A stretch of DNA of 50,709 nt from Escherichia phage vojen. Location of the stretch: sequence record NC_049824.1. One strand, written 5' to 3'. Within the stretch, counting starts at the first letter, position 1; every line of letters begins with the position of its first letter. Below the pieces are notes generated by a model. The model was not told the DNA's origin. It worked only from the letters and a program-made list of their open reading frames with translations, and did not search any database. A program made the position numbers and the translations under genes. This document shows positions 7,915-50,709 of the stretch, piece after piece.

Positions 7915-8127
7915 ATGAAAATTCGAATCACCAGGGTTGACATTGACCGCAACGACGGAAGCATTACCCTTGAGCAATGCGGGTTCAAAGTTGGTGACAT
8001 TGTAGAGGTTGACGGATTCTTTCGCGATGGCTCTTACTGCGTGTTAGCAATCCGCAACACAGAAGAAATTCGAATCGGTGATAACATCGGCGTAAATCAT
8101 GACGAATGCGAGGTAGTAGAAGAATGA
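7915..8127 (+). CDS. hypothetical protein (70 aa)
   Basis: ORF with AGAGGAAA RBS. Confidence 0.55.
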   Translation: MKIRITRVDIDRNDGSITLEQCGFKVGDIVEVDGFFRDGSYCVLAIRNTEEIRIGDNIGVNHDECEVVEE

Positions 8128-8429: not shown

Positions 8430-8741
8430 ATGATTTATATTCACACTTACGGGATCGGGAAATTTGCCAACAAGCAGATCCGAAATATTTACGACACGCT
8501 AGACGATGCGAAAGCACAGCAACGCGTTTTGGGTGGTGTAATTCAGGCTTTTGAGTTAGTGGAAGACATAGAGCGCCGAGAGCATTTGAAAGAGATTATT
8601 GTTGATGAAATTTCATCACTAATCGACGACATGACAAATCACGGGCCTGGTTCTCCGTGGGAAGAAGCCGGATCGACGGAGTGGGATTGCGCTAAAGTTG
8701 CAACGCTTAACAACTTTCGTGAGTTGCTCGACGATTTTTAA
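8430..8741 (+). CDS. acidic hypothetical protein (103 aa)
   Basis: ORF with GGAGA RBS; D/E-rich composition. Confidence 0.55.
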   Translation: MIYIHTYGIGKFANKQIRNIYDTLDDAKAQQRVLGGVIQAFELVEDIERREHLKEIIVDEISSLIDDMTNHGPGSPWEEAGSTEWDCAKVATLNNFRELLDDF

Positions 8742-8750
8742 TTAAAATTG

Positions 8751-8797
8751 AATGCCTCACACAGCGAACAGGGCGCATTTTGACGAGGCATTTTTTA
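8751..8797 (+). terminator. Putative intrinsic terminator (long-loop hairpin + T-run)
   Basis: ATGCCTC...GAGGCAT inverted repeat followed by TTTTTT. Confidence 0.35.
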
Positions 8798-8811
8798 GGT
8801 AAGGTGATTTA

Positions 8812-8940
8812 ATGGATAACTACATAAAACCGTCGCAGTGGCGCGCACAGATGCAAGAGCAAGCATTAGAGCGCGGCGACACTGAAACGGCAATGCACTA
8901 TTTCGAAATGTACAACTTGTGGAAGGATAGGGGTCTGTAA
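8812..8940 (+). CDS. small hypothetical protein (42 aa)
   Basis: Short ORF with AGGTGA RBS; stop overlaps the next start. Confidence 0.3.
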   Translation: MDNYIKPSQWRAQMQEQALERGDTETAMHYFEMYNLWKDRGL

Positions 8941-9170
8941 TGTTTGGAATGAACGAAGCACAATTCAACGCTGCAAAACGCCAGGCTAAGAAGTGCGGCG
9001 AGGCAATGAAGGCGGATGTTGAAAAGCGAGGGAAGTATGTTGATGAAGTCATGAAGGGCATTATTGCCGAACATTATCAGCCAGTTGCGCCAATGCTGAC
9101 AATTACCCAATTCATCTGGTTGTGTGGTTATCTTCGTGGGAGGTGGGGAAACGCATTTGACCGCGAATGA
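8940..9170 (+). CDS. hypothetical protein (76 aa)
   Basis: ORF with TAATG overlap to the upstream small ORF. Confidence 0.5.
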   Translation: MFGMNEAQFNAAKRQAKKCGEAMKADVEKRGKYVDEVMKGIIAEHYQPVAPMLTITQFIWLCGYLRGRWGNAFDRE

Positions 9171-9305
9171 TTGACAACGATTTCCTGATTGGTTAGCATA
9201 TTCAGCGTTTACATAAGAGCGGCATTAGTGCCGAACGGGTGGCGCGGTTGCCACGCAACAACGGCGATATGCAGGTTTTTACCGTAAGACGTATCGCCTT
9301 TTTTT
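9171..9305 (+). ncRNA. Candidate small RNA unit (promoter-like hexamers, structured ~100 nt, terminator)
   Basis: TTGACA, 17-bp spacer, TAGCAT; no ORF; local stems (GTGGC...GCCAC); GGCGATA...TATCGCC hairpin followed by TTTTTTT. Confidence 0.3.
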
Positions 9306-9317
9306 ATAGGTGAATAT

Positions 9318-9551
9318 ATGGAAAAGTACAAATTAACTTTCATGTTTGACAGTATGGTGATGAATCCATTAAATGGTTACGCTTGCAATAGCTTTTCTGT
9401 TACCGTGAATGAGGATGAAATTGATGATGATGGTAAATTTATTCGAATAGGTGATTACATTTATCCTATTCACAATATCAATTGCATCAAGCGCGAGATT
9501 GTTAAAGATGAAGTACAAAGTAAAGCTGACAATCAGACGAATGGGGCGTAA
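9318..9551 (+). CDS. hypothetical protein in AT-rich cassette (77 aa)
   Basis: ORF with AGGTGA RBS; visibly more AT-rich than flanking genes. Confidence 0.5.
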   Translation: MEKYKLTFMFDSMVMNPLNGYACNSFSVTVNEDEIDDDGKFIRIGDYIYPIHNINCIKREIVKDEVQSKADNQTNGA

Positions 9552-9689
9552 TTGCCAGTCATGTAGGCAGGATTTTGAATGCGAGATTTCAGCGCAAAAT
9601 CCTGTTGACGCGATTCAATGTGCTAAAGTTATATCAGGTGCAGATCCAGAGACGCATCAATTTTCAATCAATTTTGTAAGGGAAGTATC

Positions 9690-9923
9690 ATGTTAAACTT
9701 AATTTCTGCTTTTGTTATTGGTTTTGTTCTTGCTGTGATTATTCTGCTTATCGCGTCGGAAAAGATTTGCAAATTTCTTGCTAAGAACGGGAAGTTTGCA
9801 AGCGCGACATGGAATAACAAGATGCAGCGATGGGATGTGCGCGGTCACTATCTGACGATCGGTAGCAAAATCCATCAGCATCTGAAGAATCAAGAAGATG
9901 AAAAAGTAAAATACAAGTGTTGA
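9690..9923 (+). CDS. small membrane protein (77 aa, N-terminal TM helix)
   Basis: N-terminal hydrophobic segment ISAFVIGFVLAVIILLIA; AT-rich. Confidence 0.5.
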   Translation: MLNLISAFVIGFVLAVIILLIASEKICKFLAKNGKFASATWNNKMQRWDVRGHYLTIGSKIHQHLKNQEDEKVKYKC

Positions 9924-9930
9924 ACAACTA

Positions 9931-9955
9931 CCCGCCAAATGGCGGGTTTTTTATT
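9931..9955 (+). terminator. Rho-independent terminator
   Basis: CCCGCC-AAAT-GGCGGG hairpin followed by TTTTTTATT. Confidence 0.8.
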
Positions 9956-10003
9956 GCCTGCAATTTGTCTATAATGATGCTTTGTTATAAAGGAGGGCGC
10001 ATT

Positions 10004-10525
10004 ATGGCTAAAAACGTTGAGCCAGCAGTAAAGGCTTGCAATTTTAAAAAACTATATAATAAGCAATATGGCGATATAGCAAAAATGACAAAGGCGCACA
10101 AGTACACGCCTGAGCAGGTATTTGATCTGGCTGTTCGTTACTTTACTTGGGCTGAGGAAAACCATATACAGGCTGCGGAAACGGCATCCTTTCAGGGTGA
10201 CGTGTACGAAAGCAAGATTCACAAGCCGCGCGTGTTCACCTTAAACGGATTCCGATTATTCGCTGGCCTTTCTGCTTCCGTACTTGAAAAATGGCGACGT
10301 GAGCCAGGATTCAGCGAGGTTATGGACTTTATCGACGGCGTTGTTTACGAGCAAAAATTCCAGCTTGCCGCAAACAATATTGTTAACGCCGGATTCATTG
10401 GTAAGGAGATCGGCATTGAAAAGCCAGCCACCGTTACCATTGAGAATAACACAAGCGCCAGCGTTGACGCTGTAACGGCGGAGGAAGTCAAAGAGGCGGT
10501 AATTGACATTCTGGAGAAGATATAA
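10004..10525 (+). CDS. putative terminase small subunit
   Basis: Position immediately upstream of the large terminase with TAATG overlap; AAGGAGGG RBS; TATAAT at 9970-9975 upstream. Confidence 0.5.
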   Translation: MAKNVEPAVKACNFKKLYNKQYGDIAKMTKAHKYTPEQVFDLAVRYFTWAEENHIQAAETASFQGDVYESKIHKPRVFTLNGFRLFAGLSASVLEKWRREPGFSEVMDFIDGVVYEQKFQLAANNIVNAGFIGKEIGIEKPATVTIENNTSASVDAVTAEEVKEAVIDILEKI

Positions 10526-12093
10526 TGCTGATTTGGGAAGACTTAACAGCGGCGCAAAAACGCGCCGTTAAGGAAATGAGCGAATATTCATTCGAAAAGA
10601 TGATCCGCATTTGGTTTCAACTTCTCCAGGGGCAAAGGTTCTTAGGAAACTGGCATTTCAGTTACCTATGCAGCGAAGTTGAAAAAATCATCAAAGGCGA
10701 GTCACAGAATGTAATTTTCAACATAACGCCAGGTAGTGGTAAAACAGAGATATTCTCGATCCATATGTCACCTTATGCGTCATTGAAAAGTAAGAAGGTG
10801 AGAAATCTTAATTTGTCGTTTAGTGATGGCCTTGTCCAGCAGAACAGCAACCGCATCAAAGAGATTATTGGTTCTCCAGAATGGCAGGAGTTATGGCCTG
10901 GAAAGCTGGCAAAGGCGAGCGCAAAGGATTTGATTGTAACCGATGGCGGCAAGGTTAAATTGCAAGTTAACTCGCGTTCTATCGGTGGTCAGGTTACTGG
11001 TCTGCGTGGCGGCTACATGGACGATGGATTTACTGGTATGCTGGTTCTTGACGATCCAGACAAGCCGGATGACATGCTTTCTAAGGTGAAGCGCGAAGCC
11101 GGACACATGCGCCTAAAGAACACGGTGCGATCGCGTCGAATGAAAGACACTACGCCAATTGTGATGGTTCAGCAACGTCTACACGTCAATGATTCAACAT
11201 GGTTCATGACAAACGGCGGCATGGGCGGCATCCAGTTTAAGGTGGTCAGTATTCCGGCGCTCGTTACTAAGGAATATCGCGAAACGCTTCCTGATTGGTT
11301 AAAGCCTGAGTTTGATCGCGATGTTTTGTCCAGTAAGCCAGTGATGATTGATGGCGTTGCTCATTATTCATTCTGGCCTGCTAAGGAAAGCGCGGAGGAA
11401 TTACTTGCACTTCGCAATGCTGATCCTTACACGTTCGCTAGTCAGTATCAGCAACAGCCTGTTGCGCTTGGCGGTAACGTGTTTAAAACAGAGTGGTTTC
11501 AGTATTACGGCAGCAGCGAGAAATGCACGCTACCAAAACCGGATCGCTTTGAATATACATTTATCACGGTTGATACCGCACAGAAAACAGGGGAGCTTAA
11601 CGACTACTCCGTGATCTGTTATTGGGGGATGTATAAAGATCGCGTTTACTTCATTGATGGTGTTCGCGGAAAATGGGAAGCACCAGACCTTGAGACTAAT
11701 TTTGTTGCGTTCGTTAATCAGTGCTGGAAGCGCAATAAAGAATGCGGAACGTTGCGAAGGATTCATGTTGAAGATAAGTCATCTGGCACTGGCTTGATTC
11801 AGAGCGCAGCGAAAAAAATCATGATCAAGATTAATCCCGTTCAGCGAGATAAAGATAAGGTTACGCGAGCAATGGACGCAGCGCCAGTAATGCGCGCCGG
11901 ACGCGTAGCACTTCCAGAATCGCATCCTATGCTGGCTGAGATACTAGCTGAAGTTGCGGCGTTCACATTCGATGATTCGCATCCTAATGATGATATTGTT
12001 GATAACATCATTGATGCGGTTAACATTGAAATGAACATGGCAGATGATCCGGTTGGAAGAATGAAAAAATTGGCAGGTTTGCGGAACAAATAG
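10525..12093 (+). CDS. terL: terminase large subunit
   Basis: Walker A-like PGSGKTE, Walker B-like LVLDDPD, C-terminal nuclease-like region, 522 aa, followed by portal. Confidence 0.85.
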   Translation: MLIWEDLTAAQKRAVKEMSEYSFEKMIRIWFQLLQGQRFLGNWHFSYLCSEVEKIIKGESQNVIFNITPGSGKTEIFSIHMSPYASLKSKKVRNLNLSFSDGLVQQNSNRIKEIIGSPEWQELWPGKLAKASAKDLIVTDGGKVKLQVNSRSIGGQVTGLRGGYMDDGFTGMLVLDDPDKPDDMLSKVKREAGHMRLKNTVRSRRMKDTTPIVMVQQRLHVNDSTWFMTNGGMGGIQFKVVSIPALVTKEYRETLPDWLKPEFDRDVLSSKPVMIDGVAHYSFWPAKESAEELLALRNADPYTFASQYQQQPVALGGNVFKTEWFQYYGSSEKCTLPKPDRFEYTFITVDTAQKTGELNDYSVICYWGMYKDRVYFIDGVRGKWEAPDLETNFVAFVNQCWKRNKECGTLRRIHVEDKSSGTGLIQSAAKKIMIKINPVQRDKDKVTRAMDAAPVMRAGRVALPESHPMLAEILAEVAAFTFDDSHPNDDIVDNIIDAVNIEMNMADDPVGRMKKLAGLRNK

Positions 12094-12109: not shown

Positions 12110-12122
12110 AATATATAATCAA

Positions 12123-12148
12123 AGGCTGGTTAATCCAGCCTTTTTTAT
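12123..12148 (+). terminator. Rho-independent terminator
   Basis: AGGCTGG-TTAAT-CCAGCCT hairpin followed by TTTTTTATT. Confidence 0.8.
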
Positions 12149-15854: not shown

Positions 15855-15878
15855 GGCGCTCACTGAGCGCCTTTTTTA
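15855..15878 (+). terminator. Rho-independent terminator
   Basis: GGCGCTC-ACT-GAGCGCC hairpin followed by TTTTTTAT. Confidence 0.8.
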
Positions 15879-17398: not shown

Positions 17399-17428
17399 GG
17401 GGAATCCTTAACTGGATTCCCTTTTTTA
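17399..17428 (+). terminator. Rho-independent terminator
   Basis: GGGGAATCC-TTAACT-GGATTCCC hairpin followed by TTTTTTATT. Confidence 0.85.
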
Positions 17429-20456: not shown

Positions 20457-20767
20457 AAAGGGCGGTTTACCTGTTTTATCAGAAACCGCCGACAGATGCA
20501 GAGCTTGAGGCCGTTGGCCTTACAAGGGCAGACTATGAAGGAGAAGATCCGCCAGAGGTTATATTTGATGAAAGCATGATGCAATCATGGGATATATTTT
20601 GCGCAATGCAAACGCAATGGAGATGTTCTGGCGGTGGCGCTTACGGATTTGATTATAATGTCTTGCCTATGCTTTTTGAGATTTACAAGGTTGAGGATCG
20701 CGAGATGGCGCTAAACGACTTGCGAATCATGGAGCAAAAAGCACTTGAAATGATGCATTCAAAATAA
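20139..20767 (+). CDS. tail assembly chaperone GT fusion via programmed -1 frameshift
   Basis: Slippery heptamer AAAAAAC at 20447-20453; the -1 frame is open through to the 20576..20767 ORF. Confidence 0.5.
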
Positions 20768-20789
20768 GCGCCTACGGGCGCTTTTTTAT
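20767..20789 (+). terminator. Rho-independent terminator
   Basis: AGCGCC-TACG-GGCGCT hairpin followed by TTTTTTATT. Confidence 0.75.
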
Positions 20790-29819: not shown

Positions 29820-30461
29820 ATGGCTGAATATGGAGCAATGTTATCTTTATCAAATGGGAATCCATTTATCACACCAAAATCAACGCCATTTTGCTTATAT
29901 GGCAAGTACACTTATTCATCTTCTGGCAATTCTGCCTATCATAGCGCAAGCGCAAATATACCATTAAATCAATCTTATCCATGTATGGCATTTATAAAAA
30001 CAACAAACACACAGCAGCCAACTGCATTAATAGCTTACAGGAATGGTGGCAACATTTATGTAAACGGAGGCAATCCATACGGGCAATCATTTACAATGAC
30101 TGTTTATATATTTGCCATATTCCCTCAAACTCTGCCAAAATATGGCATGGCTATATGGGATGCAAGCGGCAAGTTGGTTTTAACTAATGAAAGCAGGGTG
30201 CTAACAGACCTTGTGACAATTGGTGCTCATGGTTCTTCAGGGGGAACTAATATAGATCAGACATTATCTGGTTCTTATGCCGTTTGCCCATCAAGGCTTG
30301 GTGCTGTTATAGGTATGGGTGCGTCTGACATATATACATCATGCAGGTATGATGGTTCAAGCACAAGGATAGGTGCGGCAAGGACAACTCCAGGAACAGG
30401 TTCTATAACAAATAACGGAAACTCAATAATTGCCATCAAGACTGATATTTACGACCAATAA
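29820..30461 (+). CDS. putative tail-fibre-associated / receptor-recognition accessory protein (213 aa)
   Basis: Starts MAEYG; internal YGMAIWDASGKL resembles the N-terminus of the upstream gene; Gly/Ser/Thr-rich; AT-rich. Confidence 0.45.
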   Translation: MAEYGAMLSLSNGNPFITPKSTPFCLYGKYTYSSSGNSAYHSASANIPLNQSYPCMAFIKTTNTQQPTALIAYRNGGNIYVNGGNPYGQSFTMTVYIFAIFPQTLPKYGMAIWDASGKLVLTNESRVLTDLVTIGAHGSSGGTNIDQTLSGSYAVCPSRLGAVIGMGASDIYTSCRYDGSSTRIGAARTTPGTGSITNNGNSIIAIKTDIYDQ

Positions 30462-30465
30462 AAAG

Positions 30466-30492
30466 GGGCTTTCGCCCCTTTATTTTTATTTA
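30466..30492. terminator. Bidirectional intrinsic terminator
   Basis: GGGGC-TTTC-GCCCC hairpin flanked by A-run upstream and T-run downstream, between convergent genes. Confidence 0.8.
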
Positions 30493-30717
30493 CAGACTGC
30501 AATCAGCGTTTTTAAAGTTGTCAATGTTTACCCACTGAAAATTAAACGGATAGCCAGCCTTAACAAGAGTGCGGTCGCCAACTCGTTTTACTCCGAAAAT
30601 AGCAACTGAATACTGCATTCCGCTATTTTCATAAATAGCCGTGCATTCACGTTTAGGCATATTTGCGCACCCAGTCAGGGTTACGGTGGCAATCAAAGCG
30701 GCGATAAATTTTTTCAT
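30490..30717 (-). CDS. small outer-membrane lipoprotein, candidate superinfection-exclusion protein (Cor/Llp-like)
   Basis: Signal peptide with lipobox LTGC; mature ~58 aa with two Cys; GGAGA RBS; sits beside the host-range genes on the opposite strand. Confidence 0.5.
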   Translation of the reverse strand: MKKFIAALIATVTLTGCANMPKRECTAIYENSGMQYSVAIFGVKRVGDRTLVKAGYPFNFQWVNIDNFKNADCSL

Positions 30718-30771
30718 CTTGGTGTCTCCTTAGTTGTTGTTGGTTGCAACTATACACGATCTTGCGGTGTG

Positions 30772-30791
30772 CGTTTAGCAAAAAGTGCTAT
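30772..30791 (-). promoter_or_regulatory. Conserved element, variant (minus-strand reading ATAGCACTTTTTGCTAAACG)
   Basis: Variant motif upstream of the lipoprotein gene with TATAGT at a ~17-bp gap. Confidence 0.5.
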
Positions 30792-30920
30792 TCTTGTTCT
30801 TTTGTTATTCGGTGTTCTTAAATCTGCGGAGGCTTAAATTTAGCTCAAAATGTGAGCAACAATAGAGCGCTATACATACAGATAAATATATATACATACA
30901 TACAAATCAATAAGTTAGTA

Positions 30921-31045
30921 GTATATATATTTATATTTGTTCTTTATTGTTATCTATGTTTTGTGTGATTTTGTGTGTCTGGTGTTTTTTATGTGATTAT
31001 GTATGTGTCAGTGGTTGTGTGTGTCTATATATCTATATCCGGCGC
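30921..31045. repeat. GT-rich low-complexity element, copy B
   Basis: AT-rich tract, then ttgtgtgattttgtgtgtctggtgtttttt...gtggttgtgtgtgtc, then CCGGCGC clamp; parallels 1441-1580. Confidence 0.5.
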
Positions 31046-31161
31046 AAATGTAGGAACAAGAGAACAAAAAGACAACGCGGATATTTATCAATAACTTACA
31101 TGTAAGTTTTGTTATCTAGGTTGGTGAGAACGTTGTTAGAACAGAAAAAACAAAATAACTA

Positions 31162-31189
31162 TTGACTAAACGCATCAAATAGCTACAAT
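31162..31189 (+). promoter_or_regulatory. Sigma70-like promoter for the recombination operon
   Basis: TTGACT (31162-31167), 16-bp spacer, TACAAT (31184-31189), ~30 bp upstream of the exonuclease gene. Confidence 0.5.
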
Positions 31190-31218
31190 GCAGACATACC
31201 AACCAATGAGGGCAAATC

Positions 31219-32280
31219 ATGAATAAGTTTATGGCGTACACCAGCGAAGAAATGAGCAATGAGCTTTATCACGATCCAGAAGCGTGGACGGCTGATTATG
31301 TTAGCGGCTCAAGCCTGGCAGAGATTTACAGCACATGCCCGGCAGCGTGGAAGTTCAAGCCGCGTGACGATAAGAGCAAGGCGCTAGTTTTCGGTACGCA
31401 GTCGCATACCAACTTTGAAAGCAAGGAGCTTTTCGAAAAAACATATCGCCGTGCGCCATCGCCAGAAGACTTTAAGGATCTGATAACTAGTCAAACTGCG
31501 CTTGCCGCAAAACTGAAATCATTTGGCCTGAAAGGTACAACCGGAAAGACTTATCCAGACCTTATCAAAATGTTGGTTGACTGCGGAGAAGACCTTAACG
31601 TCATGTGGTTAATCGACATGATCGCAGAAAGTCAGGCCAGGGCAGATGGGGTTCAGTTAATCGAAGCTAAAGATTACGATGCGTGCGTGGCAATGCGCCA
31701 GGTTCTGGAATCAATACCGGAACATAACGCATGTATGAATAGCAAGACGGCACAACGTGAATTATCGTTGTTCGGTGAAATTAACGGCGTAAAAGTCAAA
31801 GTGCGATGCGATCACGTTGACGTAACAAAGAACGTCACCGCAACGCTGATTGATGGTTACGATGAAAAAGGTCAGCCGATTTGCCGCGATATTATTTATC
31901 CAGAGGCCATTGTGATCACAGACTACAAAACTACAATGAGCGCGAATCCGGCTGAGTTTATGCGCCTGGCTTACAATCACGGCTATTATTTGAAAATGGC
32001 GTTGCAATGTGATTTATTCAGAAAAGCGTATCCAGAAGAAAAGCGACCTATAGTTGTGCGACTGTTAGCGCAAGAGAAGAAAGAGCCTTATTTGCCGTTG
32101 GCTTTCCGCATGAATAGCGAGCAATTGAAGATCGGGCGCATTCAGTACATGAGCGTAATTAACCAGTTTGCCATGTGCCAGCAACATGACGTTTGGCCTT
32201 CGTATTCAAACGGCGAGCCGGAGGTTTGCCTTGATACTCCTGATTGGGTGCGACGCCAGTTTAAGCAATATCTTATTTAA
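31219..32280 (+). CDS. putative recombination exonuclease (PD-(D/E)xK family)
   Basis: Candidate catalytic segments CDHVD and ITDYKT; directly upstream of Erf and SSB. Confidence 0.55.
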   Translation: MNKFMAYTSEEMSNELYHDPEAWTADYVSGSSLAEIYSTCPAAWKFKPRDDKSKALVFGTQSHTNFESKELFEKTYRRAPSPEDFKDLITSQTALAAKLKSFGLKGTTGKTYPDLIKMLVDCGEDLNVMWLIDMIAESQARADGVQLIEAKDYDACVAMRQVLESIPEHNACMNSKTAQRELSLFGEINGVKVKVRCDHVDVTKNVTATLIDGYDEKGQPICRDIIYPEAIVITDYKTTMSANPAEFMRLAYNHGYYLKMALQCDLFRKAYPEEKRPIVVRLLAQEKKEPYLPLAFRMNSEQLKIGRIQYMSVINQFAMCQQHDVWPSYSNGEPEVCLDTPDWVRRQFKQYLI

Positions 32281-33342: not shown

Positions 33343-33385
33343 TTGACAGGGGCGATTGCGCCCCTTTTTTACAGGAGAATAAAAC

Positions 33386-44834: not shown

Positions 44835-45050
44835 ATGAAAGATTTTTTAAACGCTGCAACTTCCGGCACTGGCGGCGCGTCAATCACTGGCGCGGTAACT
44901 GGTCAAACAACTATTGCAATAGCCAGCTTCGTTTTGATGGCTGCATTTGGTATGTGGGGCGCTTATCTTCGCTGGCGTGATAGTAAGGCGCTACGTGACG
45001 CGCTTGAATGCGGTGATATTAAGAAAGCTATTGAGATCAGAGGGAAATAA
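44835..45050 (+). CDS. putative holin / pinholin (71 aa, one TM segment)
   Basis: Hydrophobic segment [20 protein letters not shown]; directly upstream of the endolysin with overlapping stop/start; AGGAG RBS. Confidence 0.55.
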
Positions 45051-49507: not shown

Positions 49508-49732
49508 TCAAAACGGAAAGCATCGCGGGCAGTTAGGATCAAAATTGCAGCCGCAATCATTGACAATCATAGTTGGATCTGCAAATGCAGCGCCGCATTC
49601 ATGATCCATATCCATTTCACCCAGCGCATCATCAAGCGTCCTGATCTTATATGCAACTTCAAGCGCTGTCTCTTTATTTAATCCGGCATCTTCAGCCATT
49701 TGCAGGCGCTCAAAAAATCCGTCCTGACTCAT
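49508..49732 (-). CDS. small Cys-rich protein (74 aa)
   Basis: Start moved to ATG with AAGGAG RBS; C-terminal CGC...CPRC cluster. Confidence 0.45.
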   Translation of the reverse strand: MSQDGFFERLQMAEDAGLNKETALEVAYKIRTLDDALGEMDMDHECGAAFADPTMIVNDCGCNFDPNCPRCFPF

Positions 49733-49861
49733 TTCATAAACTCCTTGATAGCAAACAGAATAATAGCAAGACCAGCAGTGACAACCCAAAGACCAATAAG
49801 GCCAATCATCACTCCCAATAAAATATCAAGAAATTTCATCATTATTATCACCTTTATTTAA

Positions 49862-49886
49862 AGGGAGGCGAAAACCTCCCGTTTAT
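49862..49886. terminator. Intrinsic terminator-like hairpin
   Basis: GGGAGG-CGAAAA-CCTCCC hairpin with T-rich flanks, downstream of gene 49890..50117. Confidence 0.55.
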
Positions 49887-49889
49887 TAA

Positions 49890-50117
49890 TTAGACAGCCT
49901 TCCAGCTTTCAATGAACATGCTGTTCTCTTCAAGAAGTTTAATCAATTCTTCGCGTGTATATTTGCGGATTTTACTACCAGGATGCGAGCCAACAACAAA
50001 CACACCTTTACCGCTTGTGATTGTTAACTGGTTGATTCCGCAAGATTTATCCATTTTTACGGCGACGCGGTGATGAGCGTCAATAGTTGCCATAATGTTT
50101 AAAACTTTTGCTTTCAT
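49890..50117 (-). CDS. hypothetical protein (75 aa)
   Basis: ORF on minus strand. Confidence 0.5.
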   Translation of the reverse strand: MKAKVLNIMATIDAHHRVAVKMDKSCGINQLTITSGKGVFVVGSHPGSKIRKYTREELIKLLEENSMFIESWKAV

Positions 50118-50225
50118 TTAAATATCCTCAATTGAAATATGAATGACGTGGCGCTCTTTTTCCGTCGCCGCCGTAATGGTCATTTGCAACAGCCACCATC
50201 CAAGCGTTTTTGAAAATAAATAGCC

Positions 50226-50438
50226 TCACTTCTTATTTTTCATTTTAAATTTATGACCTGGAACACCAGCACCAATATATCCATCGTTGTATTCCATTAA
50301 ATAAAGGTGAAGGCCATTATCTGAAATTAAATGAGGATCTTCTTTTAGATTTCCCATTAGTTGGTATTCTTTTCCGCGCGTAAATTTCCAAATTGATTTA
50401 TAAGTTTCTACACATTTAAGTTTTAATTGCCTTGCCAT
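50226..50438 (-). CDS. hypothetical protein (70 aa)
   Basis: ORF on minus strand. Confidence 0.5.
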   Translation of the reverse strand: MARQLKLKCVETYKSIWKFTRGKEYQLMGNLKEDPHLISDNGLHLYLMEYNDGYIGAGVPGHKFKMKNKK

Positions 50439-50635
50439 TAGATGATCTCCATGTATGTTTCAAAGCCATTTAACTTGAACAGGCCGTTTTCACATTTGCG
50501 CACGTTCCAAGTTAGCCCTGAGTGGTACGCCTCCATATCATCAAGATCAATGGTGATTTCAACGCCTTTCTTAAATAAGCCTTTTTCGTGAGATTTGTCG
50601 CGCTTAACCACTTTAACATCAACCTGATTTTCCAT
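50438..50635 (-). CDS. hypothetical protein (65 aa)
   Basis: First ORF downstream of the motif copy at the window end. Confidence 0.5.
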   Translation of the reverse strand: MENQVDVKVVKRDKSHEKGLFKKGVEITIDLDDMEAYHSGLTWNVRKCENGLFKLNGFETYMEII

Positions 50636-50690
50636 TTTTTAATCCTCGTTCGTTGTCGATGCGCATAATATACCAATCAGAGGCGCATCG

Positions 50691-50709
50691 GTTTTAACAA
50701 AAAGTGCTA
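50691..50709 (-). promoter_or_regulatory. Conserved element, truncated at window end
   Basis: Plus strand reads GTTTTAACAAAAAGTGCTA, preceded by GATGCGC...GCGCATC dyad enclosing an ATAAT-like hexamer. Confidence 0.5.

Follow-up and report, generated by a model that had tools for sequence, protein, structure and literature searches.

A compact transcription unit with a structured leader RNA and a variable gene slot precedes the packaging genes of Escherichia phage vojen and other Drexlerviridae

The sequence record of Escherichia phage vojen (NC_049824.1; 50,709 nucleotides (nt), referred to as the window in the following) represents a T1-like siphovirus of the family Drexlerviridae, subfamily Tempevirinae, with Hanrivervirus genomes as its nearest relatives. 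This study deals with the segment 9318–9923, which contains three small overlapping open reading frames, namely ORF A, ORF B, and ORF C (Table 1), and forms the final coding unit of the small-gene block directly 5′ of the packaging genes terS and terL. An initial annotation, deduced from the sequence letters only, had described the segment as an accessory cassette at the boundary of early and late genes, and its placement between the small-gene block and the packaging genes was confirmed. The gene order of phage G29-2, with approximately 24 small plus-strand genes preceding those for terS, terL, portal, head, and tail, is collinear with the window. Furthermore, phage aaroes is 96% identical to positions 8700–10600, and matches at the megablast level were found in 64 phage records. 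The results show that 9318–9923 is the coding part of a compact transcription unit fixed in the T1 family (Drexlerviridae), of which only ORF A is lineage-specific. In this order, the unit consists of a predicted sigma70-type promoter, a structured RNA, a variable slot, ORF B, the coupled ORF C, and a terminator, followed by a separate promoter-like element and terS.

Table 1. Features assigned at the junction of the small-gene block and the packaging genes (aa, amino acids; TM, transmembrane helix).
Feature	Position	Strand	Description
Sigma70-type promoter (predicted)	9171–9199	+	TTGACA, 17-nt spacer, TAGCAT; 10/12 consensus positions
RNA conserved core	9206–9262	+	Single-stranded CGUUUACAUAAGAG segment, hairpin 1 (9220–9233), hairpin 2 (9239–9254)
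Third RNA hairpin, intrinsic terminator/attenuator (predicted)	9263–9305	+	Conserved CCGUAAG motif, then U7; directly 5′ of ORF A
ORF A	9318–9551	+	77 aa, acidic (pI 4.6), all-beta; last 14 codons overlap ORF B
ORF B	9508–9696	+	62 aa, mildly basic, beta-beta-alpha-beta; Drexlerviridae-wide, T1 gp56 homolog
ORF C	9690–9923	+	77 aa, bitopic membrane protein, TM at about residues 2–23, predicted N-out/C-in
Intrinsic terminator (predicted)	9930–9952	+	7-bp stem, 6 GC pairs, then T6; −13.8 kcal/mol, z-score −4.3
Post-terminator element	9953–9975	+	TTGCCTGCAATTTGTCTATAAT; outside the cassette, boundary marker; probable terS/late-unit promoter
terS	10004–10525		phrog_606/GP3_package

The comparison across the family was based on 44 loci, comprising 11 reference loci (the window, CampE6, pSf-1, tonijn, Reinasaurus, the Klebsiella K50 phage, T1, pSf-2, LF82-40, DTL, and XT34) and 33 loci obtained from IMG/VR. 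Synteny was checked in T1, Tlsvirus, Warwickvirus, Webervirus-like phages, Nouzillyvirus, Braunvirinae, and LF82-40. ORF B was located just 5′ of terS in each of the 11 reference loci, and the RNA element accompanied it in all 44 loci. In 43 of the 44 loci, including all 33 from IMG/VR, the gene after ORF B encodes a TM protein, only the Braunvirinae phage DTL being devoid of ORF C. The presence/absence comparison that the initial annotation had suggested thus revealed conservation at the same locus for ORF B (44/44) and ORF C (43/44), and not for ORF A. Homologs of ORF B were detected in 797 phage records representing Drexlerviridae of Escherichia, Klebsiella, Shigella, Salmonella, Citrobacter, Enterobacter, and Cronobacter, and those of ORF C in 200 phage records. 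No ORF B homolog, whether bacterial or of prophage origin, was found among 185,579 species genomes of bacteria and archaea.

The 147-nt spacer 9171–9317 is nearly invariant in Hanriverviruses, its conservation exceeding that of the adjacent genes. It yielded blastn matches in 128 records and aligns to the 165-nt spacer between gp58 and gp57 of T1. The predicted promoter at its 5′ end overlaps with the stop codon of the 76-aa gene (phrog_303) on its upstream side; the −35 hexamer of this promoter is unchanged across the Hanriverviruses, and 35 of 43 loci, drawn from different subfamilies, have a −35 of the TTGAC type with a −10 at an equal distance 5′ of the RNA. The third hairpin of the RNA, with a folding energy of −15.2 kcal/mol and a z-score of −3.8, is likewise nearly invariant in Hanriverviruses, phage JLBYU41 carrying a 17-nt insertion in its loop. 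In the Klebsiella phage, an equivalent hairpin with a U-rich tail is located directly before ORF B, and the RNA of T1 lacks the U-run. Most lineages have such a putative terminator or attenuator in the RNA. The bracketing of the cassette by a candidate small RNA and a terminator, as claimed initially, was therefore borne out, with a promoter-like site, a structured RNA, and a hairpin followed by U7 on the upstream side and a terminator on the downstream side.

Evidence for the RNA structure was obtained from covariation. In an alignment of eight sequences from five genera, analyzed with RNAalifold, compensatory double changes were found in 8 out of 10 base pairs of the two hairpins. A covariance model built from this alignment, designated R1, matched all 11 reference loci, T1 included, as well as all 33 IMG/VR loci; every genome had a single copy, which lay on the same strand as ORF B and 55–470 nt 5′ of it. 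Three of these loci had been outside the training set, namely LF82-40 (E 1e-11), Klebsiella K50 (E 3e-7), and DTL (E 4e-4). Among 25 distinct RNA sequences, 91% of cells were paired, compared to 65% in shuffled sequences and 22–44% in slid controls, and double changes were present in 9 of the 10 pairs. An interpretation as a tRNA or tRNA remnant was rejected, because ARAGORN detected no tRNA in the window and no Rfam family reached its gathering score there, nothing being reported over 9171–9310 even at E ≤ 10. Pairing of the 5′ single-stranded segment with the CCGUAAG region, as proposed by the single-sequence minimum free energy fold, was not adopted; judged by eye, T1 and XT34 lose the complementarity. 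In the literature searched, no report of this RNA or of any noncoding RNA of the T1 family was found, and the conserved RNA probably deserves its own report as a new phage RNA family. In the Klebsiella K50 phage, the annotated gp84 (a 49-aa ORF, locus 2352–2501) sits on top of the RNA element.

ORF B corresponds to the 52-aa cysteine-containing ORF that had initially been suspected at 9541–9696. It proved to be a real gene encoding cysteines, its start being located at 9508 rather than at 9541. This start is supported by three observations: the 51-aa version joins the phrog_2919 family only from profile position 12 onwards, relatives devoid of ORF A begin with MK[YW]KV... directly after the ribosome-binding site, and the ratio of nonsynonymous to synonymous polymorphism (pN/pS) in the 44-nt overlap with ORF A is 0.14 in the ORF B frame versus 1.41 in the ORF A frame. 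The match to phrog_2919 comprises residues 12–62 of ORF B and positions 12–60 of the 60-position profile (E 1.8e-23), and the full 62-aa protein aligns end to end with 23 homologs. ORF B is hence a full-length member of this family, which includes T1 gp56 and is unannotated. The N-terminus reads MKYKVKL..., followed by the invariant motif MG-x-x-C-x-S-C-x-Q-x-F-E ... H-x-F, and proteins from different subfamilies are approximately 40–50% identical with their motifs conserved. A four-cysteine zinc ribbon was rejected, as only C16, C19, and H50 are kept in all members of the family.

Among the structural neighbors of the AF2 (AlphaFold2) model of ORF B, the ribosomal protein eL20/LX scored best, together with PurS, which does not bind RNA and reached an equal score. 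The identity of ORF B to the N-terminal domain of eL20/LX and to PurS is 12–27%, with no detectable homology, and the CxxC turn of ORF B is absent from both. With the HMA domain (PF00403) of copper ATPases and chaperones, ORF B shares a local beta strand followed by G-M/R-x-C-x-S-C-x-x-x-[IF]-E. Membership of this family was rejected on account of scores below the gathering threshold and the wrong topology, ORF B being devoid of the beta-alpha-beta-beta-alpha-beta ferredoxin-like fold; the resemblance is retained only as a hint that the CxxC loop may bind metal. For phrog_2919, no earlier description of its fold, of the invariant motif, or of a linkage to an RNA was found in the literature searched. 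Several existing gene calls at this position differ from ORF B as defined here: the annotation of T1 gp56 begins at an internal ATG and gives 47 aa instead of about 60 (locus 7939–8082), ORF B is not annotated in aaroes, G29-2, and Fulano1, and ORF26 of DTL (locus 1120–1380), which crosses a tRNA, represents an over-extended ORF B.

ORF C overlaps ORF B by 7 nt (ATGTTAA) and is predicted to be translationally coupled to it. The N-terminal TM helix and the basic tail that had been ascribed to this product were both recovered, with a Kyte–Doolittle maximum of 3.16 at residues 4–22 and a tail of pI 9.75 and a charge of +7; its orientation in the membrane is suggested by the positive-inside rule. 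The tail carries W...W-x-V-R-G-x-Y and a C-terminal VKY motif. ORF C matches the Pfam family DUF7299 (PF23973), which corresponds to phrog_5976, from end to end (model positions 1–76 of 77, 106.7 bits versus a cutoff of 27, E 6.4e-31), as do the alleles of pSf-1/SFP17, tonijn, and the Klebsiella phage, and alleles other than that of the window score 73–101 bits, the range with the window included being 73–107 bits. T1 gp55 remained just below the cutoff (24.6 bits, E 2.7e-5) and is a probable member. In 10 of the 11 reference loci, DTL being the exception, this position is occupied by a protein of 72–79 aa with an N-terminal TM helix that overlaps ORF B or lies at most 2 nt away from it; these proteins have in common a core of the form W/Y...W-x-[VI]-x-G and, in most cases, [VI]KY-x-x at the C-terminus. 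New for DUF7299 are thus its fixed place after ORF B and before the terminator preceding terS, the TM helix with its basic tail, the [VI]KY motif, and T1 gp55 as a probable member.

The strong terminator that had been proposed at 9931–9955 was found downstream of ORF C with marginally different borders (Table 1). It is invariant in Hanriverviruses, and an equivalent terminator follows the ORF B/ORF C pair in T1, tonijn, XT34, DTL, and the Klebsiella phage. Directly behind it, most relatives carry an extended −10 type element, TGGTATAAT, while the window has TGTCTATAAT with one extra base and thus not a perfect extended −10. The string TTATGCCTGCAAT-n-TGGTATAAT follows the terminator directly in the loci of Klebsiella K50, T1, LF82-40, DTL, and XT34, and therefore across subfamilies. 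A T-run followed by TAWAAT within 32 nt was detected in 42 of 43 loci, and in 30 of the 43 the hexamer is preceded by TGn (TGnTAWAAT), suggesting that the terS unit probably has a promoter of its own. A 21-nt direct repeat 3′ of the terminator, as in TLS, was rejected for the window, in which the corresponding string is unique.

ORF A begins 12 nt after the U7 run (9299–9305) and is present in 100 phage records (tblastn), with identities above 70% in Hanriverviruses and of approximately 50% in Warwickviruses; it was found in no other genera. In total, 21 relatives of the CampE6 lineage (“Campylobacter phage” records), which are about 95% identical in both flanks, lack it. In these, 140 nt replace window positions 9303–9634, and GAGG comes after the upstream terminator and precedes the start of ORF B. 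The gene is frameshifted in phage aalborv and occurs in only 1 of the 33 IMG/VR loci; outside the overlap with ORF B, its pN/pS is 0.15. No family was found for it in Pfam, PHROGs, NCBIfam, or PADLOC, and a profile search (HMMER) against 1.84 billion representative proteins recovered two small full-length relatives only, further matches consisting of short repeat motifs in giant proteins that were judged to be compositional noise. Its AF2 model (pLDDT 78) depicts a small acidic beta-barrel with no informative structural neighbor. ORF A has neither a promoter nor a terminator of its own, as the 9171 promoter and both terminators persist where it is absent, and it lies between elements that are adjacent in relatives (CampE6 lineage, Klebsiella-type phages), which does not apply to ORF B and ORF C. 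Judged from these comparisons, ORF A is a dispensable, lineage-restricted ORFan, apparently inserted between the RNA terminator and ORF B. Since it is small, acidic, dispensable, and narrowly distributed, a role as host- or competitor-directed inhibitor seems most likely, albeit with low confidence.

The “Campylobacter phage” records (21 entries, MG0656xx, marked UNVERIFIED) are about 95% identical to this coliphage type and classed as Hanrivervirus, and their host label looks doubtful. Versions of ORF A annotated with 100 aa (aaroes_43, G29-2 gp23, and pSf-1 gp57) start inside the RNA and cross its terminator; in the window this longer frame is closed, the T-run consisting of seven rather than six Ts.

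The position taken by ORF A differs in content among the lineages. It is empty in CampE6 and in Klebsiella-type phages, where only 54–72 nt, representing the third hairpin and the ribosome-binding site, are present. In T1, Tlsvirus, and others, it is occupied by a gp57-type ORF of 52–70 aa, which showed no relation to ORF A on comparison; elsewhere, a family of 72–90 aa was found in some loci, and TLS harbors two ORFs. The 69-aa slot ORF of TLS may be a remote relative of ORF A (hhalign E 6.5e-4, probability 28%). Furthermore, tRNA genes were located in the slot of LF82-40 (tRNA-Ser(GCT), locus 1095–1182) and of DTL (tRNA-Arg(TCT), locus 1105–1182). The C-terminal ...KDEVQSK... of ORF A-type proteins (window 9507–9551) is set by the overlapping N-terminus of ORF B (MKYKVK) in the other frame, and can therefore produce spurious similarity among unrelated slot proteins (e.g., P0045). 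In the Nouzillyvirus XT34, a homing endonuclease gene (locus 311–811) resides between the homolog of the 76-aa gene and the RNA. Across the family, 147 to 891 nt separate the 76-aa gene (phrog_303) from ORF B, which indicates that the whole neighborhood is an insertion hotspot.

Within the Hanriverviruses, three allele classes of ORF B with 55–64% identity and two classes of ORF C with 39% identity were distinguished; across them, hardly any variation is seen in the flanks, at the 3′ end of ORF C, or in the terminator. The combinations observed were A-B1-C1 (window, aaroes, Fulano1), A-B2-C1 (G29-2), A-B2-C2 (pSf-1, SFP17, JLBYU41), and noA-B3-C1 (CampE6). From this distribution it appears that the alleles of ORF B and ORF C recombine independently among genomes that are otherwise about 95% identical. 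The ratio of nonsynonymous to synonymous divergence (dN/dS) of ORF B and ORF C amounts to 0.2–0.6, with values of 0.3–0.6 between alleles, and synonymous divergence (dS) is saturated between alleles, which points to old lineages swapped by recombination and not to rapid divergence in situ. According to these substitution patterns, all three ORFs are real genes under purifying selection.

Taken together, an ancestral RNA-led operon with ORF A as an accessory gene is considered the probable explanation for the locus. In this operon, host RNA polymerase would start at the near-consensus promoter at 9171–9199 independently of phage factors. Most transcripts would end at the U7 hairpin, releasing a short RNA, and read-through would give an mRNA covering ORFs A, B, and C that ends at 9952. 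As the U7 hairpin lies immediately upstream of ORF A and, in phages with an empty slot, of ORF B, the proteins would be expressed only upon read-through, and the short RNA would consequently be the default product. ORF B would be a soluble cytoplasmic protein in which the Cys-x-x-Cys turn and the conserved histidine may form a metal site. ORF C would have its anchor in the inner membrane, with its basic domain of about 50 aa in the cytoplasm, and may act as a membrane-tethered partner or effector that is co-expressed with ORF B in most cases yet can be separated from it. For ORF B itself, a function as small RNA-binding regulator of its own leader RNA, by autoregulation/attenuation or as a read-through switch, is proposed tentatively; an RNA-directed role is the leading guess because of the strict linkage in cis between the RNA and ORF B and the RNA-binding-like fold.

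Several points weigh against this explanation. The 33 IMG/VR loci were picked by conserved ORF B peptide patterns and do not represent a random sample of the family, and the alignment of 25 RNA sequences was fitted to the R1 covariance model. Promoter, terminator, and topology assignments were all made in silico, and the early/late timing is deduced from position only. The fold of ORF B is small and common and yields promiscuous matches, which weakens the step from fold to RNA binding, and the similarity to eL20/LX is moderate. Since the alleles of ORF B and ORF C assort independently and DTL is devoid of ORF C, an obligate complex of the two proteins is argued against; in Hanriverviruses, moreover, the RNA is nearly invariant while the ORF B alleles differ by 35–45%, so that no co-variation of RNA and protein is visible. 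Searches of Pfam, PHROGs, NCBIfam, and PADLOC returned unannotated families only and no functional assignment for ORFs A–C, and the literature searched contained no functional data on these ORFs and none on gene essentiality in Drexlerviridae. Finally, the linkage of the RNA to ORF B could mean that the RNA is a mere 5′ untranslated region (UTR) of the operon. Host-interaction effectors encoded by ORF B and ORF C, serving takeover, exclusion, or counter-defence behind an RNA that is only their 5′ leader, are about as likely as the regulatory function of ORF B; an effector role would also be compatible with the mosaic alleles.

Two further explanations would extend the function of the RNA to the control of late transcription, and both are considered unlikely. 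In the first, promoter, RNA, and ORF B would form a ribonucleoprotein (RNP) regulatory device, in which ORF B, by means of its eL20/LX-like fold and a CxxC...His metal site, binds the two leader hairpins, controls read-through, and sets the early-to-late switch; the gap between RNA and ORF B could then also serve as a protected site for the insertion of accessory genes and tRNAs. In the second, the RNA and ORF B as its cofactor would carry RNA polymerase from 9171 past 9305, 9952, and the late terminators, resembling the N/nut or put systems. That the unit would then be the early-to-late switch of T1-like phages, with ORFs A–C as the first genes of the late transcript, appears equally doubtful. 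The layout with a promoter, two hairpins, a terminator, a small basic gene, a further terminator, and the late genes on one strand throughout the family would fit this proposal, as would the best fold matches of ORF B, the RNA-binding eL20/LX proteins. Strong terminators were located in the structural and recombination regions of the window (12122–12142, 15855–15871, 17400–17421, 20766–20783, and 33349–33364); all five run straight into a ribosome-binding site and ATG with no recognizable promoter, implying substantial late read-through. In the re-annotation of TLS, only three sigma70-like promoters were described compared to 21 terminators (PMC11447400). A late region that is dense in terminators and poor in promoters makes a read-through switch attractive.

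Antitermination is opposed by the element of the TGGTATAAT type between the 9952 terminator and terS (42/43 loci), owing to which terS need not rely on read-through, and by the T1 RNA, which lacks a U-run terminator. ORF B contains no arginine-rich motif and showed no similarity to N, Q, or p7. Compared to lambda PL-nutL-N, HK022 put, and lambda PR′-6S-tR′, the locus shares the layout of promoter, RNA hairpins, small basic gene, terminators, and a terminator-rich late region. However, ORF B resembles N and Q neither in sequence nor in fold, no boxA/boxB consensus is present, and terS is preceded by its separate element, so that the likeness is an analogy of layout only.

The reading of the initial annotation, by which the whole of 9318–9923 would be a horizontally acquired AT-rich moron serving exclusion, defence, or counter-defence, is quite improbable and, as the origin of ORF B and ORF C, already refuted. 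Morons are autonomous accessory units of the HK97/HK022 type. The segment resembles them as a unit bracketed by promoter and terminator between conserved genes, by the patchy occurrence of ORF A among close relatives, and by a GC content below the genome average; in addition, its products are small, one of them being membrane-anchored, and the sharply divergent alleles of ORF B and ORF C within conserved flanks are typical of arms-race loci. The accessory nature claimed for the cassette holds for ORF A, which is confined to two genera and is absent from 21 relatives. ORF B and ORF C, by contrast, are ancestral, residing at the same locus in all lineages sampled, including T1 (ORF C missing only in DTL), under purifying selection and with an ancient divergence of alleles (dS saturated) rather than a recent gain. 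Unlike in morons, the promoter and the terminators belong to the conserved unit and persist, together with the RNA, where ORF A is absent, and the phage is virulent, so that expression from a prophage does not apply. ORFs A–C matched no defence family of PADLOC-DB at E ≤ 1, and the phage possesses a separate Cor superinfection-exclusion gene.

The composition of the segment was compared with that of the window. With 37.5% GC compared to 44.1% for the window, it falls into the 2nd percentile of 606-bp windows, and the AT-richness noted initially is thus real. It is nevertheless modest, three other regions being lower, and is due mostly to amino-acid composition. The GC contents of ORF A, ORF B, and ORF C (34.2%, 39.7%, and 38.9%) correspond to the 5th, 13th, and 9th percentile of 85 gene-like ORFs, and their GC contents at third codon positions (GC3) to the 14th, 7th (lowish), and 61st percentile, respectively, that of ORF C being average. 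The deficit resides mainly at codon position 2, indicating for ORF A and ORF C an effect of amino-acid composition and not of foreign codon usage; it originates from the TM helix and from stretches rich in Ile, Asn, Lys, and Asp. In other genera, homologs of ORF B and ORF C have a GC content above that of their surroundings in some cases and below it in others, with no consistent trend. The regions that are AT-richer than the cassette are located at approximately 30350–31450, 49730–50700, and 1020–1800, the lowest 606-bp window (34.7% GC) lying near 30580. The first of them contains the Cor gene (30493–30717, minus strand). Stronger outliers than ORFs A–C were also found among small ORFs, namely 1364–1501 (25% GC) and 50226–50438 (31% GC, GC3 21%).

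A role in lysis control, with ORF C as holin, antiholin, or timing protein and ORF B as its cytoplasmic regulator, is highly improbable. ORF C is small, with a single TM helix and a charged tail, and its position is analogous to that of the lysis genes of lambda, which occupy a place just 5′ of the terminase genes. However, a complete holin–endolysin–spanin cassette (G29-2 gp68–70), with the holin at 44835–45047, is located elsewhere in the window, and DTL manages without ORF C. ORF C was rejected as a holin or Cor paralog, since it is not similar to this holin and a tblastn search against the window retrieved only ORF C itself. Its predicted domain in the cytoplasm would also differ from periplasm-sensing antiholins such as T4 RI. 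The possibility that any of the three ORFs arose by chance in AT-rich intergenic sequence beside a small RNA and is not a gene is virtually negligible: their lengths of 62–77 aa, the missing annotation of ORF B in several GenBank records, and the lack of a family for ORF A are outweighed by purifying selection on all three, significant hidden Markov model families for ORF B and ORF C, motifs kept across subfamilies at about 40–50% identity, and AF2 models that are confident or moderately confident.

As ORF B and ORF C have already been catalogued (phrog_2919 and DUF7299), the proteins alone are not new. Apparently undescribed so far are the RNA with its covariation, its universal association with ORF B, and the existence of a slot for cargo within a conserved unit.

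The results correct recurrent mis-annotations in this group of phages, namely the start of T1 gp56, ORFs called over the RNA, and the omission of ORF B from records. Should the module represent only a 5′ UTR and two effectors, the result would be an ordinary one and still a useful annotation. The natural insertion slot, accommodating ORF A, gp57-type genes, or tRNAs, could be of use for phage engineering. T1 is one of the original Delbrück phages, and Drexlerviridae rank with the coliphages and Klebsiella phages that are isolated most often, some of them being candidates for therapy; they time their gene expression using host RNA polymerase alone. For this family, the unit of promoter, RNA, ORF B, and ORF C at the junction to the packaging genes provides a concrete and testable candidate for regulation or host interaction.

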